This document shows, in pieces, positions 1-58,690 of a stretch of 64,000 bases of DNA (positions are counted from its first letter, which is position 1; every line of letters starts with the position of its first letter). Both the position numbers and the translations under genes were made by a program. The DNA lies in the NCBI GenBank assembly GCA_010093705.1, contig MU006091.1, forward strand, positions 1 through 64,000. The letters are read 5' to 3'. This DNA is from Patellaria atrata CBS 101060. Lineage: Eukaryota. The notes under the pieces are model-generated. The model made no database searches, was not told the DNA's origin, and was given only the letters and a program-made list of their open reading frames with translations.

Positions 1-1876
1 CCCTCGAGCTCGTCTCCATCACTTGCACAGACAGCTCTTCGGCCTCCTTCCACCGTCCCGCAAGGCTTGTTGCTAGCCCTACCATCCCCATACTGCTTAA
101 TGTGTCCTTATGCTCTCTACCAAGCAGTTTTGTCCTAACCTCCATTGACCTCATCGATAGTTTCTCAGCATCGCTCAGACTTCCTTTTTGCCACGCATAC
201 CACGCTGCCCTGTACAACAATAGAGCCCACTGTCTAAGGCATTCCTCAGACTTGGGCGGCTGTGACAGCGCCGACTTAACATGTGGAAAGAGCGCTTGAC
301 ATTTGGCCCAGTTCTTATGTTCCCCTGTCGGAAATTCTATGCAAAGATTGTTGATGTACTGCTGCTTCCACGTCTCTAGTTGGCCCTGCCCTTCCAACCA
401 CTTCCGCGTGGCCAGCTGCACAAGCCTATGCATGTCAAATGTGATTGCATCAGTGGTAAGTGCGATAAACGAGTAGTTCCTCAAAGTAAGAATGTCCTCT
501 TCGAACCCGTCGTCGATGCTGGCTTCCGACTTGCTATCGTCGCTATTACTATTTTCGCCGTCTACGTTAATAGCTCCTACGTCCCCGTGTCCATTTCCCG
601 GCCCACTTTGAGTGCGAATAAGCGCTTCGGGAATCCCCTGCCGGTCAAAGAAACTCATTAAGGATAATAGATTTGCCGCCGACCGCCTTGTATAGAGTAT
701 AAAGTCGAAGGAGATTTGCCATGTTAGAAGAATCGAGTTCTTAGCTTCGTGGTCTCTTCGAAGATGACCTCCCTCGTAGTCTAATAAGCTTGTCTTTTTC
801 CTGTCGCTCTTATGGAACTGGTCTAGATACTGCCGTGTTGAACATCTTGGCGCTCGTTGTCGGATATACGCAGCCGCCTGCACAAGAGCGAGTGGTATGA
901 ATTCGAGCGCTGTCGCTAACTCGGTTATACCGTCGTTATCTATTCCCTCCCCTAGTTTTTTTCGTAGAAGAGTTTGCGCGCCTATATCATTCATCGGCTC
1001 GATAGTTATGATATCGGCGTCCTCCACTACTTCCCGCGCCGCTTTCCTTGTCCAACTAGTGACTAAAACCGCACCGTTCTTGCTCTGGGGTAAATAGGAT
1101 GAGAGGTGCCGTTGACGAGCGCGATCTCTGCCGCTAGCCTGTGTCTTATGGTCATTTCTCGCTTGTAGAGAGAGAAAAACGGCATCGTCGACATTATCGA
1201 GGACCAGCAGCCACTTGCCGCTCTTCTCGCTGCGAAGCCAGTTATAGACAAGCTCGAATATATCTGCTCGTGGGTCTTTCCGACCAGCCAGCTTGACTTG
1301 GTCCGCGATGGCCCGGTAGCCTTGCTCGACGCGGGCCGCATTGCTGGCGTGCACCCAGAATACCCACGTCTCCGGCGATCGATCTGCGGTTCGATAGCAG
1401 TGCTCGATAGCAAGTTGCGACTTCCTATGCCTGCGTTAGGTGCGCGCACTGGGCCGAGTGTTTTCTCCACTTACCCCACGCCGCCAAAGCCGACTAACGC
1501 TATACGAGATGCCGGCGTGGAGCATTTCTTGTATATCTCATCGAGTAGCGTGCCACGATCGACGAAGTCTGGGTCACGGCGAAAGGGGACGTTGCAGGAA
1601 GGGCTCGACGGGGTCTCCGGTCTCTCTGTTAAAGCGGCGGGATGTTAGTAACCTTTCCCTAGAACATAGAGTTACTAGCAACGACTCACCATAATGGATA
1701 TTATAGGTTTCTGTCACGGAGCCTGACTGAAACTTAGCATGAAAAACATATCGCTGCAAATAAGACATACCGATCAACTGTGCATTGCCCGAGATATAAC
1801 CGGCTACAGCGCCACTGTTGCCAGAGATAGGGCCAAACTCGACGCCCATCGGGATTGCTGTCACGTTGCTGGCCAT
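1..1876 (-). CDS. Fungal NLR (short N-terminal motif + NB-ARC + TPR repeats), 3' end beyond window start
   Basis: Spliced model: ATG 1876; introns 1770-1723, 1689-1626 and 1474-1425, all GT..AG with CTAAC/CTAAG branch sites. Product MASNVTAIPMGVEFGPISGNSGAVAGYISGNAQLIGSVTETYNIHYERPETPSSPSCNVPFRRDPDFVDR.. has Walker A GFGGVGKSQLA, Walker B WLLVLDNVDD, IPLALVQAAAYI, FDMHRLVQ and a first TPR (LGREHKDTLSSMGMVG..GRWKEAEEL). Exon 4 appears open to base 1. Confidence 0.92.
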
Positions 1877-2404
1877 TACTGCCGCAGAGGGTTATACATA
1901 CAAGAACCAAACACTATGCTAGCATGTTCAGGCAAGTAAAAAAAACACAGGGTACTTTGAATAAGTCGGCTTAAACATCGTATGACTGCGCTCGAGTGCG
2001 TGGGTAAATTTCCTTATAAGCCCTTCACCGGTCAACCTCTCCTGGCTTAACATCCCACAGCCTTTCTCCGGATTAAGCCCCTACAGGTTCAGCTGTATTT
2101 CAACGTCGTTCTTTGGCTTAAACGAGTGGATATATGCACTCGCGCGGACAATAGGTGCGACGGGGTTGGACAAGCCCCGCACCAAAAAGCTGGTGGTGAA
2201 TCAGAGATGCCGACCTTACACCATAATTTTGTATTTCTATGACTGCGAACGTTCCTGTATCAGCGTGTTAGGTGTGCATGATCAAGAGTATATAACAGGC
2301 CACAGCCGTTCCATCAGCGAGGCTCGTCCATAAACATCGGTTCGGCCTAGTCAAAGTGAGAAATATAAACAATCGCAGTCACCATCTCTCCTGCTTGTTC
2401 TAAC
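1877..2404. promoter_or_regulatory. Probable bidirectional promoter between the NLR and the SesB-like gene
   Basis: 528 bp between divergent ATGs. TATA-like elements near 1892, 2289 and 2364. Clustered GGCTTAA motifs in both orientations. Confidence 0.55.
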
Positions 2405-3659
2405 ATGGCCGAAAGCGTAGGATTTGGGGTACCTCTACACAACCCAAATGATGCCAAGGTCGAGTACGTCTATCCTAGAGTAGCAGCCCATGTCCATTTA
2501 ACTTCTTATTCGGTCTTGCTAACCAAAAGTCAGTATCATATTTGTCCACGGTCTGGGCGGCCATAGGATCAACACGTGGACATTAGATCCGACGAAGAAA
2601 TTCCCAGTAAAGACGTTTTGGCCGGGAGATCTCCTCCCTAAGGCTTGCCCGACGGCCCGGATCCTATCATTTGGCTACGATTCCCGCTTCGTCAAATTCT
2701 TCCCCTTCTCCAAACCGAATTTAGCTCGAGAGGGAACGATCGACGAGTATTCGACCGCCCTCTACCAAAACCTCGCTAGCTTCCGCGAATCAACGAAAAC
2801 GCCCGTAGATCGTCCCATTATCTACGTAGCGCATAGCCTCGGCGGCCTTGTTGTCGCAAATGCAGTATCGCGCCCGCCGGGCGTCAATGAAACGGCGCAG
2901 AAACTCACAGAGAATACCATAGGCATGATCTTCTTGGGTACGCCATTTGCAGGTTCTGACAAGGCATCGTGGGGTGAAATGGCGGCAAAATTTGTAACAT
3001 TGTTTGGCATCCAGACCAAGGACACCGATATCAAAGATCTCAAGGAGCGGTCAGCAAGGTTAATCGACATAAACCTAGACTTTGACACGTTCATCAAAGC
3101 GCGCGACCGTGATCGCAAACACGGGCCCGTGGAAATTGTCTGTTACTACGAAGCAGAACCGACGTATGTTGGGCTCAAGGATATCGGAAAGATTGTAAAT
3201 AAGGAATCGGCCGCGCGGCTTCCAGCCATTGCTGCACTTTCTATCCCGGACAATCACACCGACATGTGCAAGTTTGCCGGCGAATTTTCAAGCGGGTATG
3301 CTAGTGTATCAGGCCAGTTGGAGCAATGGATCACGGCGCTGGATAAGAGGGGAAACGAAGACGAAGAGGATAGGGTGTGCCCTACTTGGTAACTGATTAT
3401 TAGAGGTTAAGCTAACGTTGTGCAACAGGGCTCGACGAGAGTGAGAATTGATGGCATAATGAACAACAAAGGCGTGGTGACAGGGGTTATAAATTCTCTC
3501 CCTGGAGGGACGACCAGCGTCACGGGCTCAGCAGACACGGTAACGTACCCGATTTATATCTTTGAGGCTCGTCGACAGTGCTGATACTCCGTGCAGACAT
3601 ATAACTTTGGTCAACTTCCCGATGAAATGATTGTAAAACTGATGGGAAATATGAAGTAA
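2405..3659 (+). CDS. SesB-like alpha/beta hydrolase (lipase fold) with C-terminal candidate amyloid motif
   Basis: ATG 2405; introns 2464-2533, 3375-3428 and 3540-3596; TAA 3657-3659. Motifs DIIFVHGLGG, FWPGDLLP..ARILSFGYDS, nucleophile elbow VAHSLGG, IFLGTPFAGS and NHTDMCKF. C-terminal tail GSTRVRIDGIMNNKGVVTGVINSLPGGTTSVTGSADTTYNFGQLPDEMIVKLMGNMK. Confidence 0.88.
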
Positions 3660-3760: not shown

Positions 3761-5300
3761 TTTTTTTTATTGGGTTTATTAAAAGCGGTAGCCCAATATT
3801 CCCCTTAAATCCGAGGCGGGACAGTTAAACATCTCACCCGAACATCCCATTCACTTGTATGACAGGAGATATTGTAACAATGAGCCGTGAGATAAAAATC
3901 CCCACCTTAGGGTGGTGGGCGTTAAAGTCGCCGAGGAGGAGGGCTTCCCATCCCTGTTCCACGTCTTTGAGGGCTTCTTCGATCTTTGGGCAGGTTTGTA
4001 TACTATTAGCTGAAGGCCCCGGATTGTATACGTTGATTATTCGGAGTTTCGTTCCCTGGAGTTTCAAGTCTAGGGCGGTTATATATGGGCCGTACTGGGT
4101 GCGTTTTGCCTGCGCTAAGGCCGCTTCTCTACTTATTATGAAGCATACTCTCGTTTCTTCATTTACTTCGTACTCTAGTATGTAGTTCTTTGGGCAGTAT
4201 GCCGATTTTGTATGCTTGTTGTACCCCGGCTCCTGGACTGCGACTACGCTATTCTTCGTCGGGTCTAAAGATTCGAAAAAGGATCTGGATCCGTTTCAGT
4301 TGGAGTGGCCGCAATTGTACTGTGTTATTGTTGTGATATTCATAGGGCGGCATCGTCTTGGGTAAATTCCTCGCTGGTGTCTGTTGGCTGCATGCTGATC
4401 GGTGTGTTCGGCTGGGATCCGAATACTAGTATCTCGCTTTCCCCTAGGGATATAGGCGGTGCGGTTGCGTTTAGATTAAGCGCTAGCTGCGATGGGCCGG
4501 ATACTACTTTATAGGTCTTTGGAGGTTTCCCTAGGCCTCTTCTTACTTCCATGTCGTTTAATCCGCTCCCCGCCGTCCTCTTCCTTGGGTTTCTAAGCAG
4601 TATCTGGGATGGAGTAAGGGGGATGAGTTGGGTCGTCCTTTGGGTGCCGAGCGCTCCTAGGGCTTTCCCCCTTCGGATGATGTATGTTTGTTCTGAGAGT
4701 GCGAGTCGCTTGCTCTTAACCTTTTCTAGATGTTGTTAGAATACTTTACATTCGCTGCGCTGCCATGCCTTGTGCCTTTTCCCGCAGTTTGCATATACAA
4801 TCTGTGTTTGGGGGCATGAGTCCGTCTAATGCTGCTAGACACAGTGTCCGCATTGGTCCTGCTTCTTGCATGCGGTTTGGGTGTGGCTCCATTGATAGCA
4901 CTTAAAGCATTATTTCACCCTTACGGCGTTCTTATAGAGGCGCGTGTCGAATAGTTCTAAGTTAATCACGATACCCTATTGGAGTGCTCTGTGCTGGAGC
5001 TCTTGGCTAAGAAAGTTAATAATGAGGGTTCCCCTTTTCTTTTCCCTTACTAGGCCGTCCGGTGCGGTGCTCTTTCGTGCCGGCTGCTTCTCTATGTCGT
5101 ACAACCGCCTAATCTTTGTAATATTCAGGCCGGGTAGGATCCTTTTAGAGCCGTTGCAAATCTTCTGTATGATCTCCGTGTTTTCTGCCCCTTTCCCATT
5201 CGATACTGGGACCGTGAGGGGGACGCTGGGTACATCGATCTGGTAGGCAGTTTGAACTATCTTGCAGCCCTCCCTAGCGGGTCCTCTCATGATCCTATCT
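3761..5300 (-). mobile_element. Degenerate, internally deleted Tad1/I-like non-LTR retrotransposon (LINE)
   Basis: ORF1 zinc knuckles (CFKCYQWSHTQTAC..CGHC..) at ~4760-4915. ORF2 endonuclease start (QYNCGHSN..VAVQEPG..IINVYNPG..LLGDFNAHHP) at ~3905-4330. About 150 bp of 3' region ends in AATAAA and a poly(A) run (T run 3761-3768). Several in-frame stops; no RT domain. The 5' boundary is approximate. Confidence 0.8.
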
Positions 5301-5405
5301 TTTATGCTTTGCGAGGTGACGAACGAGGGCGTATCACTGATGTGTACACGCCGCAGCAAATTGATTAACGTTATGATTCCGAGTTCCCCTTTAGCTTCTA
5401 TAACC

Positions 5406-5838
5406 TTATACACCACGTGCTAGCACAAAATAGTCCCAGTATTCGTAAAAGTCATAACGGTTAACAAGTAGCGGGAGGTACTTAGTCTCCCATTCCGACC
5501 CAATTTTCGAAGTCCAGCGGGCCTTGCAGTACTCCCAATAATCCAGATACCATCCAGATTGATGCTAATCTATGATTGAGATGATCTGAGGGTCCGGATC
5601 ATGGGATATGAGAATGTTGCTCGGATGCAAGTCAGCATGCGTAAATACGATTGGAATTCCATCAGGTAAAAAGGAGCGGTATGGATGGGGTGATCGTTCT
5701 ACTCTAACATGAGCATACGGGACATAAGCAGTAGAAAGCCAGTCGTGAAATTCGGACGTGCTTTTGAAGGGGCCTGCCGATGGAGAACAACTGCTCGTAA
5801 AGATGACGTCTAATAGCGGCTGCCGACCCACATGTCCT
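5406..5838 (-). pseudogene. Aminoglycoside-phosphotransferase/choline-kinase-like (APH) pseudogene, 3' fragment
   Basis: GPFKSTSEFHDWL..IVFTHADLHPSNILIS..IISIID*HQSGWYLDYWEYCKA. The conserved IDW Trp is TAG at 5565-5567. No 5' exons recognised. Confidence 0.75.
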
Positions 5839-6190: not shown

Positions 6191-7246
6191 CTGGTTGTTG
6201 TTGATGCTTCGGTCGCAGTAAAGATTGGTCGGAGGCTTCCAGAGAGCGTAATTCAGCGTATCAAGGCGCGATTTGACGACAACCAGCCCGTTCCGGCCAT
6301 TGCTCTAGCGCTCAATATATCCAAAACAACTATCTACAAATTGAAGTTGAATTTTGATATTTTTGGAGCGCCGTATGCTCCGGCATCTGTGAAAAATGGC
6401 CGCCCAAGGTCCCTTACAGAGCATCGAGAGCCAGTACATAGACTCAGATCTTGTTCCCTACAGTTGACTTATTAGCAGAGACTTTTAGAGTATCTAGATG
6501 ATCAGCCTACAGCGCTTCTTGATGAGATGCAAGTATTCCTTTTCGACGAGTTTGACGTGTTTATCTCAACATCTAGTGTCTATCGAGCGCTACAGAGGGC
6601 TCGTTGGTCTCGAAAAGCAGTAAGAAATCGAGCGTCTGAGAGAAGTCAGCCACTCGGTACAGCTTGGGTTGGAAGATCGAATACCTAGACTACTGAGCAG
6701 TTGGTGTTTCTTGATGAGTCAGCGGCTAATGAGCGTACTGGAGATAGAAAATACGGCTGGTCACCTATCGGAGTAGAATGCGAAATTACTCGCCCTATTA
6801 AGCGATCGGAGAGATGGTCTATCTTACCAGCTTTAACTGTTAACGAATATTTAGAGTATAAGATCTTCCAAGGTAGCTTTACAAGCGAGTTATTCCTCGA
6901 GTTCGTGGCCGACGGAGTGCTTCCATTTTGCTCAGCATACCCAGGCCCACGATCGATTTTGATACTCGATAACGCCTCTATCCACCGATCCGCAGCACTA
7001 CGAGAGCTTTGCGCCCGTTATGGTGTTTTAATTGAGTATCTACCGCCTTATTCGCCAGATTTTAACCCAATTGAGGCGACTTTTCATGACTTAAAGGCAT
7101 GGATTAGGAGGAATCGTAGCCTAATAAGAGAATTCACGGACTTTGAGATGTTTCTTCGCTTTGGAGCTGAGCAAGTTGATAGCCATAACCACGCTCGAAA
7201 GCATTTTAGAAAGGCTGGATATATTGTAGATAACGTAGAAGAGTAA
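6191..7246 (+). pseudogene. Tc1/IS630-family (DDE_3) transposase with premature stop
   Basis: HTH-like N-part (IALALNISKTTIYK..GRPRSLT), then FLDES, ILDNASIH and LPPYSPDFNPIE with 34 residues between the second D and the E. In-frame TAG at 6686-6688. Start codon unresolved; probable intron ~6433-6475. Confidence 0.85.
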
Positions 7247-56510: not shown

Positions 56511-58690
56511 CTAAACGGCAATTTCCTGCAACCTCCCTACAACCTCTCTGTAAAACCCCCTGGCCAATTCCGCCCCTACAGCCTCCTCCCTCTCGTCCTT
56601 CTCCTCATGAATACCAAAAGCCGTCGGGCCCTCCAAGCACGACCAAATGACCTCCCGCACCTTATTCCCGACAAAGCTCTTGACGTGGCCCAAGAACCTG
56701 GCCTCGCCCAGCAAGCGCTGGCGCACCTTGATCGTCACGCTCGGGCGCGCCGAGCCGACGTCCGGGATCTCCAGGATCCGGTCGATGGGCTGCCAGTACG
56801 CGATCTCGAGCAAGATGACACCCAGAGAGTAGATGTCGTACGTCTTGCGGAAGTTGGTCTGCGGGTAATACGGCGTGCCGGAGGTCGGGCTCATCGGCGG
56901 CGACGACGACGACGAAGTCGCGTACAGCCTGTTCCCCTCGGCCGGGTTGTGCGGGCTGTACGGCGCCATGTCCATGGCGCCGGAGCCGTGGACGCGCGGG
57001 TGCCGGTACAGATCGTATGCCGCGTTCTCCGGCGGCTTCTCCGTCATGTCTTCGTTGGCGGCGGGCCGGGAGTAGTCGAAGCCGCCGATGAGCGGGGCCG
57101 CGAAGTCGATGTCGACGTCTGGGTCGCTGCTGTTGCCGCTGTCGGCGAAGAAGAGGATGTTGTGGCTGCGCAAGCCCTTGTGCAGCCAGTTGACGGCGTG
57201 GAGGCGCTCGATGGCCTCGGCGATGCGCCGCATGAGCGCGATGCGGTCCGTCAGTGAGGGCGTCTCGAGCTTGGGGTCGCGCAGGAGCTCGAGTAGGGAG
57301 CTGGGCCGCGTCGAGTGAGGCACCGAGGCCGGCTTTTCGAAAACGAGGCCGAAACGGAAACGGTCATCGCCGGCTGGGTCGGTGTCGCGGAAGAAGCCGA
57401 CGCAGTGGGGCGCTGGGAACATATCTTTGCGGTTGTTCTCTTTGAGGAGGGCGGTGAGGGCCTTCACACGCTCGAGGACCTTGGGGTGCGGCTCGCCGCT
57501 GAAATTGAGGGGTTCGTAGGTGCTCCATTCGATCCAGACGTGTTGTCTCCTTTTGGAACCGGGGGCGTGGTAGATCGCTTCGGTCCGGGTTGTCTCTTGG
57601 AGGCTGTCGTCTGGGTCTGCGTTGTCGAGCAGGTGGATGTCGTTGCGTCTGAGTTCTACCGAATTGTATATCTCTTCCGCTGAGTGTTGAAGCTTGAGGT
57701 TCAAGGCCGTATCCTCCGTCAACGTACATGAGTCGGTCGCTGAAATGAGAGCTTTGAATTGTGCGAGTTGCGCGAGTGTTGGCATTTTGACGGATTTTTC
57801 ATCTTTGATGTCAGTGGAATCGTCCAGATTGCGGGCTTGAAGAAACGCGCGGAGAGGATTTGTAGCATTTCTCCTGGAAGAGGATGCTGCATGGGCTAAA
57901 GCAAGGAGAGCCCCGGCATCAACAATCTGGACGAGGTGGTCTATCTTGCTGTTGAGCTGGATGATTTGATACTCTGTTCGTGTCTGCTTGTCTGCTAGTT
58001 TCTCGAGTTGCTGGTTGTTAAGTAATTCCATCATGAAGTCATTAAGAGCAGAGAGCTTTATGAGCAGAGCCTCGACCTTTTGCTTGTCCCAACTCGCCCA
58101 TTTCAAACGCTTTGGATACTTTCTAGTCGCATCCATCAAGTCCAAAGATCTCATGAAAAGTGTTTCCGACTGCGGAAATCGCTTCTGAAGATTGGTCTCA
58201 CTCCTTGAAAGACCAGAATTTACCGTATCTGGGGACGTCGGTGAGTCTGGTTTAACTGCCGAGTAGGCCGGAGGGTCATCGGCATGAGTATTGCTGACGT
58301 TGTAGACGTCGCTATCGTCCGTCAGGAGCGGCTTTCGTAGCGGCTTATACTTCTCGTCGTATTTGCCAAACCGATTTACGAGCTGCTCCTTCTGATGTAA
58401 CACATCAAGCAATAAGCTCTTGCTCGCGTTGCTGATGAGTAAGTCGTCTTCATTTTCACTGAGGTTCGCAACATGAGCCCAGTCCAGAAGCCTATACTGC
58501 TCCGTCTTCATTCGCACACGTAGGTATTGGAACTCCTTCGGCATGCCACGGGCATCTGATAAAAGCTGGTATCCTGTAGATAGTGAGAATCGTATTACAA
58601 CAAAGCGGAAATCCACTCACCCTTCACACATCCCGAAAATACTTGAAATGTAAGGGAGACAGCTCCCAGGATCATACTAGCTGGATCCAT
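56511..58690 (-). CDS. HeLo (prion-inhibition) domain + protein kinase-like domain protein
   Basis: Hydrophobic N-terminal helix MDPASMILGAVSLTFQVFSGCVKG (intron 58620-58574), LRVRMKTEQYRLLDWA and RLKWASWDKQK..L..LNDFM. Kinase-like C-half with LHAVNWLHKGLRSHNILFF, GFDYSRP, YRHP and DIYSLGVILLEIAYW. Confidence 0.9.

Follow-up and report, generated by a model that had tools for sequence, protein, structure and literature searches.

Work on the amyloid relay from nucleotide-binding oligomerisation domain-like receptors (NLRs) to effectors of cell death forms a small and well-defined field. Here we examine a candidate for a further case in Patellaria atrata CBS 101060, in the first 64,000 nucleotides of contig MU006091.1 (assembly GCA_010093705.1; this whole stretch is called the window), where an NLR gene and a gene for a SesB-like alpha/beta-hydrolase stand head to head and share a short terminal motif. 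[quoted passage not shown] For the sigma motif, the copy on the NLR was first missed owing to an unnoticed 5' intron (PMC3321046). As of 2025, the fungal amyloid-signalling motifs (ASMs) comprised five families, namely HRAM, sigma, PP and PUASM 1-2, and the Pfam model PF17046 'Ses_B' was described as 'PP (misnamed SesB)' (PMC12261475). The published patterns are FxGx(x)NxGLQLxGxNxGxL with the core NxGxQxGxN for PP, GxGxQFN and GGTQNINT for sigma, and FxGxGxQxxGxGxF for PUASM (PMC3321046, PMC9815663). A 2022 table of NLR/effector pairs has 24 rows with PF05057-type effectors and places every one of them under sigma (NLR28) or PP (NLR07) (PMC9815663).

We propose that the pair in the window is likely to be a two-gene NLR/effector module comparable to fungal PNT1/SBP, with a Gln-less, extended relative of PP as its amyloid-signalling motif. 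The receptor combines an NB-ARC domain containing Walker A and B with C-terminal TPR repeats, and it carries a short N-terminal extension in place of an effector domain, as only NB-ARC, DUF7779 and TPR families were found in it. The neighbouring effector gene lies on the opposite strand and ends in a C-terminal extension that follows an acidic linker. The two extensions are significantly homologous. The receptor core reads F-G-P-I-S-G-N-S-G-A-V-A-G-Y-I-S-G in exon 1, with the tail S-V-T-E-T-Y-N-I-H-Y in exon 2, and the hydrolase core runs in exon 3 from I-M-N-N-K-G-V-V-T-G-V-I-N-S to G-S-A-D-T, with exon 4 opening T-Y-N-F-G. This agrees with the initial annotation of the locus, made by eye from the sequence, which had described divergent genes 528 bp apart, an NLR lacking any other N-terminal effector domain (we find an extension of ~46 residues before the linker and P-loop) and two motif copies split by introns. 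GT..AG introns do divide core from tail in each gene, and the spliced NLR N-terminus and hydrolase C-terminus read exactly as it gave them.

Local alignment (Smith-Waterman) of the receptor's first 50 residues with the hydrolase's last 62 gives a score of 48, which none of 5000 composition-preserving shuffles attained (mean 22.7, standard deviation 4.5, maximum 45). When either peptide is compared with the complete partner protein, its top local match falls on the motif there. An effector profile hidden Markov model (HMM) was derived from the C-termini of 28 further hydrolases, none of them from the window. It gives the window hydrolase 32.7-32.8 bits and residues 12-43 of the spliced receptor N-terminus 15-16 bits (P 4.2e-7 for a single sequence). 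With this profile the two loci head the list of the 2587 six-frame open reading frames (ORFs) of the window (E 6e-9 and 0.036, against 0.061 for the next), the second-ranked being the receptor ORF, which is split by an in-frame intron. No third motif-bearing gene was detected in the window, where the next-best ORFs have E values of 0.06 or worse. The match is independent of junction choice because both cores sit inside single exons (1771-1876, with 35 residues in frame from 1772-1876, and 3429-3539) and align directly in unspliced form.

The motif recurs in other fungi on both kinds of protein. Our comparison sets were 120 listed SesB-like homologues on the effector side and, on the receptor side, the 120 closest NB-ARC relatives listed plus the spliced window receptor, 121 in all. 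At >=15 bits the motif is present in 39 of the 120 hydrolases (28 seeds and 11 non-seeds), with none scoring 8-15 bits, and it is C-terminal in 38 of these 39. By their source names the carriers belong to Dothideomycetes, Sordariomycetes, Eurotiomycetes and Leotiomycetes. The consensus of 30 sequences is I-x-x-G-D-x(5)-I-x-N-N-x-G-V-V-x-G-x(4)-T-x(8)-G-S; in outline, the motif is ~40 residues long, with a core N-x-G-V-V-x-G followed by a second segment G-S-x(2-4)-T/Y-x-N/Y. The effector-derived profile also picks 7 of the 121 receptor N-termini at >=9 bits, namely the window receptor (second of 121, 19.2 bits), its paralogue in the same genome, P0166, and P0195, P0228, P0197, P0184 and P0231. 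All seven carry the motif at the extreme N-terminus, directly before a conserved RPETPP linker. Receptor relatives of the PP type reach at most 7.5 bits on the same profile, with the same profile positions aligned. Compared across species, three hydrolase C-termini from other classes, those of P0034, P0020 and P0030, match the window receptor motif with scores of 71, 65 and 62, higher than the 48 reached by its own partner; the best receptor match of the window hydrolase is its own neighbour (48, against at most 38 for the others).

Searches of larger collections returned mainly the effector side. A word-indexed search with the motif profile gave, among the matches listed (14 proteins), the seed hydrolases and P0121 only, and a profile search of 1.84 billion representatives gave 48 proteins, all of <=396 residues and all either hydrolase-side or single-exon ORFs. 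The ESM Atlas yielded no usable match to the motif region of P0002. A metagenome scan with the hydrolase alignment produced 80 loci, in 19 of which the hydrolase and NB-ARC matches share a strand within ~1.6 kb. The motif occurs in none of these 19, as expected of a relay element needed only where receptor and effector are separate. Across the 80 loci a weak, divergent motif was seen only in L010 (E 0.0087), which lacks a neighbouring NLR; the motif is missing from L001 (54% identity). A second adjacent pair of the window type was not obtained among the 80 metagenomic loci.

The motif is not recognised by standard models. In Pfam searches, PF17046, PF17106 and PF11558 gave no match to the window pieces at E <=10, nor to 16 hydrolase homologues (E <=1) or five motif-type receptor N-termini (for PF17046, E <=10), although very weak matches might be lost to the filters of HMMER; the cut-off of PF17046 is 23.2 bits. 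P0167 served as a positive control: PF17046 matches its N-terminus with 31.2 bits, and its NB-ARC domain is 78% identical to that of the window receptor. N-terminal PF17046 is carried by 17 of the 120 closest NB-ARC relatives listed, P0167 included. The published PP, sigma and PUASM patterns fail on both window peptides, and neither peptide contains G-x-Q-x-G. We therefore rejected PP as modelled, on the missing PF17046 match and the missing Gln-centred core (N-x-G-x-Q-x-G-x-N or G-phi-Q-phi-G). We likewise rejected HRAM, as PF11558 does not match and the effector is a hydrolase with one motif copy, and PUASM, as the pattern is missing and the effector is not PNP_UDP. The sigma-like start F-G-P-I-S-G noted in the initial annotation does not stand as an indication of sigma, since the sub-motifs GxGxQFN and GGTQN (GGTQNINT) are missing and PF17106 finds no match.

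A more distant relationship to PP is nevertheless suggested. When 34 motif sequences were aligned with 33 PP-type N-termini by hhalign, 15 core columns only were matched (P 0.0016, probability 16%), pairing N-x-G-V-V-x-G with N-x-G-L-Q-V-G. The PP-type G-phi-Q-phi-G occurs in the last 80 residues of 1 of the 120 listed hydrolases, P0048, as G-V-Q-V-G in a copy that is otherwise typical. These two observations agree with the earlier suggestion that Val occupies the place of a PP-like central Gln. Together with the occurrence of PF17046 on 17 of the 120 NB-ARC relatives, they lead us to read the motif as a diverged and extended PP relative in which the central Gln appears to have become Val or Ile, and which falls outside PP as now modelled.

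Two further motif types came to light in the same comparisons. The N-termini of P0168, P0171, P0188, P0233, P0266, P0267, P0272, P0279 and P0284 carry a PP variant, S-F-G-D-x-N-x-G-F-Q-A-G-I-I-N-G. P0168, the one of these nine carriers scanned with PF17046, scores 15.8 bits, below the 23.2-bit cut-off, which indicates that this model under-detects Gln-containing PP relatives as well. The metagenomic contig L029 holds a further head-to-head SesB-like/NB-ARC pair (828-1013 on the minus strand and 2296-2619 on the plus strand) with a different shared motif of ~27 residues. In the receptor this motif is N-terminal and reads F-G-P-I-x-G-x-x-V-I-A-G … G-G-T-T-N-F; the hydrolase has a similar sequence at its extreme end. 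The start of the motif, F-G-P-I-x-G, resembles that of the window receptor. Pfam has no match to the L029 motif, and the C-termini of P0080, P0090, P0091 and P0114 resemble it.

With regard to novelty, the locus is a known kind of NLR/SesB-lipase pair which uses a widespread motif variant unrecognised by standard models. An undescribed family or subfamily, as first suggested for it, fits these results, in that no Pfam ASM model matches (and the positive control does), the motif lies outside the five families of 2025, and the 2022 pair table lists no SesB-type pair from species that bear it. The table has no PF05057-type row for the motif hydrolases of Paraphaeosphaeria sporulosa, Penicillium brasilianum, Pseudogymnoascus, Talaromyces stipitatus, Metarhizium majus or Fusarium euwallaceae, and the protein in its Nannizzia gypsea rows is another, longer one (PMC9815663). 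A search of 9 of the 11 supplementary files of that paper for six hexapeptides from the motif core found none of them, and its NLR34 instances, given there without sequences, are mostly Fusarium NACHT proteins (PMC9815663). Full-text literature searches found no 'PP-like' lipase-associated motif, the HMM and FASTA supplements of PMC9815663 lying outside that comparison. We put forward more tentatively, at somewhat short of an even chance, that the motif represents a sixth fungal amyloid-signalling family, a Val-centred PP/RHIM offshoot of ~40 residues that would have evaded previous surveys owing to conserved introns in both genes and truncated public gene models, and that serves, as far as observed here, SesB-like lipases and NB-ARC/TPR receptors alone, in at least four Pezizomycotina classes.

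The splice junctions, listed with the other features in Table 1, are predicted from the sequence and its homologues. The annotated C-terminus of P0002 contains the exon 3/exon 4 product, and its last two junction products are those of the window model. P0165 has an exon 2/exon 3 junction identical to that of the window receptor model, and in P0195, P0228 and P0231 the core, the tail and RPETPP are contiguous. An intron at the position of hydrolase intron 3 is widely conserved. In a rough regular-expression count, ~30 of 43 short exon-type hits show the motif ending after G-S/T-x and continuing with Val and unrelated residues, a pattern that a conserved GTN donor at the intron 3 site would produce.

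Both deposited gene models of the locus truncate the motif (window 1574-1891, minus strand, and 3411-3584, plus strand). P0001 continues into intron 3, so that its last residues are intron-encoded and exon 4 is missing, and P0165, which is marked partial, begins inside intron 1 and omits exon 1 with the motif core. Pairs of this kind escape screens based on proteins because conserved introns interrupt the motif and gene models are cut short, so that six-frame or exon-aware searches are needed.

Table 1. Features of the receptor/hydrolase pair, with positions in the window.
Feature	Position	Strand	Remarks
NB-ARC/TPR NLR (receptor) gene	1..1876	-	ATG at 1876; runs past the left edge of the window
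Receptor exons	1876-1771, 1722-1690, 1625-1475, 1424 to beyond left end	-	From ORFs and spliced translation
Receptor introns	1770-1723 (48 nt), 1689-1626 (64 nt), 1474-1425 (50 nt)	-	GT..AG
Receptor motif copy, residues ~7-46	1690..1858; core in exon 1 (1858-1771), tail in 33-nt micro-exon 2 (1722-1690)	-	Split by intron 1
Walker A (P-loop) G-F-G-G-V-G-K-S	1418..1491; coding 1491-1475 and 1424-1418	-	Split by intron 3
DUF7779 (~685-395) and first TPR_12/TPR_10 repeats (~217-17)	17..685	-	Pfam; repeats continue outside the window
Intergenic region, 528 bp between both start codons	1877..2404		Presumed shared promoter region
SesB-like alpha/beta-hydrolase gene, 357 aa	2405..3659	+	ATG at 2405; divergent from the receptor gene
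Hydrolase exons	2405-2463, 2534-3374, 3429-3539, 3597-3659	+	From ORFs and spliced translation
Hydrolase introns	2464-2533 (70 nt), 3375-3428 (54 nt), 3540-3596 (57 nt)	+	GT..AG
Nucleophile elbow A-H-S-L-G-G	2829..2846; putative catalytic Ser codon 2835-2837	+	From the sequence
Hydrolase motif copy, residues 305-342	3441..3611; core in exon 3 (3441-3539), tail starts exon 4 (3597-3611)	+	Split by intron 3

The receptor product inside the window is incomplete, at 571 residues, and is laid out as a 46-residue N-terminal extension, a Pro-rich linker, the P-loop (~residue 92), Walker B (LLVLDNVDD), DUF7779 and TPR_12/TPR_10 repeats. The stretch GGVGKSQLAIE is also present in the 120 NB-ARC relatives listed. 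The Pfam scores of the receptor exceed the respective cut-offs (DUF7779, 30.6 bits against 27; TPR_12, 34.0 against 30.1; TPR_10, 29.2 against 27.5), and P0165, the deposited partial model of the same gene (100% identity), is annotated with PF00931, PF25000, PF13424 and PF13374. All three receptor introns have CTAAC/CTAAG-like branch sites, and intron 1 is in frame and stop-free. The region between the two divergent start codons is presumed to be a shared promoter region.

The hydrolase is placed in the DUF676/PGAP1/Abhydrolase_6 group by homology, the nucleophile elbow and a conserved His. Its exon 2 ORF scores 20.0 bits against DUF676, just under the cut-off of 20.3, and homologues exceed that value (for example P0004 with 28.8 bits and P0030 with 31.9 bits). 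H120, G123, G124 and H261 are invariant and S121 nearly so in 28 hydrolase homologues. P0001 is 100% identical to the window hydrolase, the orthologue P0002 from another fungal family is 88% identical, and several homologues bear the name SesB or SesB-related in their source records. After the motif, the window hydrolase (3612-3656, plus strand) and P0002, P0003, P0004, P0009, P0026, P0041 and P0049 share a tail D-E/A-x-I/V-x-K-L-M, which may form an amphipathic helix. The SesB-like protein P0152 (266 residues) has a complete motif copy and the elbow R-D-L-G-G instead of H-S-L-G-G, and is likely, judging from this substitution, to be a catalytically dead effector that retains the signalling tail.

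Downstream of the hydrolase gene, broken ORFs at 3834-5419 (minus strand) have no Pfam match at 1e-5; we take them to resemble a retroelement endonuclease. They are followed at 6191-7246 (plus strand) by a DDE_3 transposase of the Tc1/mariner type (E 1.8e-33), whose frame is divided by stops into three ORFs. The same genome holds a decayed second copy of the pair, P0166 and P0052, both listed with a longest contig of 1,466,072. In the receptor paralogue P0166 (94% identity), Asp replaces a conserved Gly of the core and the gene model skips the micro-exon, and the hydrolase paralogue P0052 is without the catalytic region and continues into foreign sequence that is probably transposon-derived. 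About 53 kb from the pair, a 701-residue ORF (56514-58616, minus strand) has an N-terminal HeLo domain (E 7.4e-28), a cell-death domain of the pore-forming type, together with DUF7580; the motif profile has no match there.

By analogy with the described systems, we hypothesise that the first ~46 residues of the effector-less NB-ARC/TPR receptor would act as a short signalling motif. Ligand binding by the TPR domain would cause the NB-ARC domain to oligomerise, which would gather the N-terminal motifs and allow them to adopt a cross-beta, amyloid-like fold. This fold could then template the homologous C-terminal motif of the SesB-like lipase/esterase encoded 528 bp away, and templating would activate or relocate the hydrolase, with a cell-death or defence output. 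The initial annotation had already read the locus as an amyloid-signalling pair, and every in silico feature expected of such a pair was found here, with amyloid formation itself being an inference. A complex prediction in which receptor exon 1 and hydrolase exon 3 were each present twice scored 0.02, which counts neither way.

Several observations weigh against this proposal. The central Gln, the hallmark of PP and RHIM cores, is missing. A motif-bearing receptor adjoining a motif-bearing hydrolase is demonstrated in this window alone, and the Dendryphion nanum carriers P0195 and P0024 are listed with different longest contigs. The profile search of 1.84 billion proteins gave no NLR-length protein, which is explained by the receptor copy scoring 15-27 bits, far below what that library requires; the receptor-side family accordingly rests on seven sequences found via NB-ARC homology. 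The only two sequencing runs with the locus are genomic DNA contigs from one sample, in which the introns are covered and no joints occur. Retention of intron 1 would keep the frame and add 16 residues inside the receptor motif, and skipping of the 33-nt exon 2 also stays in frame, as is seen in the deposited P0166 model. Finally, the pair adjoins transposon relics and its second copy in the genome is decayed.

These points bear on three other explanations. The shared peptide might be a conserved interaction or regulatory module of a non-amyloid kind, acting for instance by beta-strand augmentation or heterodimer docking, or as a signal for membrane or organelle targeting or a degron that both proteins have in common. 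Such a module would account for the lack of the central Gln that forms the PP/RHIM signature in the accessible part of PMC7885112, for the failure of every Pfam ASM model to recognise the motif, and for a PP similarity limited to 15 columns at an hhalign probability of 16%. We nevertheless consider it unlikely, because the positions of the motif, at the N-terminus of an effector-less NLR and at the C-terminus of an effector past a charged linker, are those of all fungal ASMs described in the parts of PMC3321046 and PMC9815663 available to us. Its length of ~40 residues and its G/N/S/T composition with alternating V/I also fit fungal ASMs, the closest NB-ARC relatives bear a bona fide PP at the same position, and the motif is missing from the fused architecture, where a relay is unnecessary.

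Alternatively, the pair could be an evolutionary relic, a duplicated and transposon-flanked NLR/SesB locus that is unexpressed or non-functional, with the match reflecting ancestry. Uninterrupted frames across all exons of both genes, six canonical introns, and an intact P-loop and nucleophile elbow make this quite improbable in our judgement, as does the 88% identity of the hydrolase to P0002 from another fungal family, which argues for purifying selection. It would be favoured by the transposon remains directly downstream of the hydrolase, the decayed in-genome copy and the purely genomic nature of the runs containing the locus. The resemblance might, lastly, be a chance match of Gly/Asn/Val-rich low-complexity tails brought about by permissive splice-site choice, given that the peptides are short and compositionally biased and that the junctions were picked by eye ahead of testing. 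We reject this reading, which has become hardly credible: no shuffle attains the observed score, a profile with neither window peptide in it detects both, each core aligns unspliced within a single exon, and homologues of both proteins carry the motif. The PNT1/SBP-type module with a Gln-less PP relative hence remains our preferred interpretation.

If the motif is a further family, it would enlarge the catalogue for annotating the many fungal NLRs with 'unannotated short N-termini'. If the proposed module is real, it would provide a natural experiment on whether templating needs the conserved Gln of PP and RHIM, and a relay of the RHIM/PP type would be possible without a Gln ladder. The presence of either the Gln or the Val form on close NB-ARC relatives would then suggest that the switch creates a signalling channel orthogonal to canonical PP in one genome, and the motif would offer a handle on how cross-talk is avoided between parallel pathways in one cell. 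It would also bring the poorly understood SesB-like lipase effectors within reach of established Podospora prion assays.

Comparison with the described systems would place the locus among two-gene relays. All-in-one NLRs of the SesB-like/NB-ARC/TPR type draw on the same hydrolase and NB-ARC/TPR families; in the 19 metagenomic loci of this layout the two domains are fused, or apparently so, and the motif is missing, whereas the window has separate divergent genes with the motif as their sole link. NWD2/HET-S and the other HRAM pairs resemble it in having an adjacent NLR and effector with a terminal motif in common (PMC9815663), but the HRAM effector is a HeLo or HeLo-like protein with two repeats, and the hydrolase of the window has one copy. 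Closer in effector type is the sigma locus of Nectria haematococca (het-eN/sesA/sesB), where the C-terminal motif of a SesB-type hydrolase, likewise of ~40 residues, is shared with the N-terminus of the neighbouring NLR, and where the overlooked intron at the NLR copy has a parallel in the public annotation of the window. Unlike the window motif, that of sigma consists of three repeats of GxGxQFN / GGTQNINT, and no partner corresponding to sesA was seen. The mammalian RHIM of RIPK1/RIPK3 has a comparable G-phi-X-phi-G core with Asn/Gly flanks, and the literature links PP to RHIM (PMC7885112); the Gln of the RHIM tetrad I/V-Q-I/V-G is Val in the window, so that any relation would be indirect, through PP.

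The hellp-sbp-pnt1 system, as far as the available parts of its descriptions go, is the closest in layout, with an NB-ARC/TPR receptor that has a short N-terminal motif only and an adjacent SesB-like putative lipase with a C-terminal motif. It differs in its HeLo-like partner, as no motif-bearing third partner of that kind occurs in the window (two HMM matches only). The window motif departs from PP in its central Val/Ile in place of Gln, in lacking the pseudopalindrome N-x-G-x-Q-x-G-x-N, and in its length of ~40 residues with an added G-S-x-T...Y segment, compared with ~20 residues for PP. The nearest NB-ARC relatives of the window receptor carry PP itself, and the core spacing N-x-G-phi-X-phi-G aligns with that of PP.

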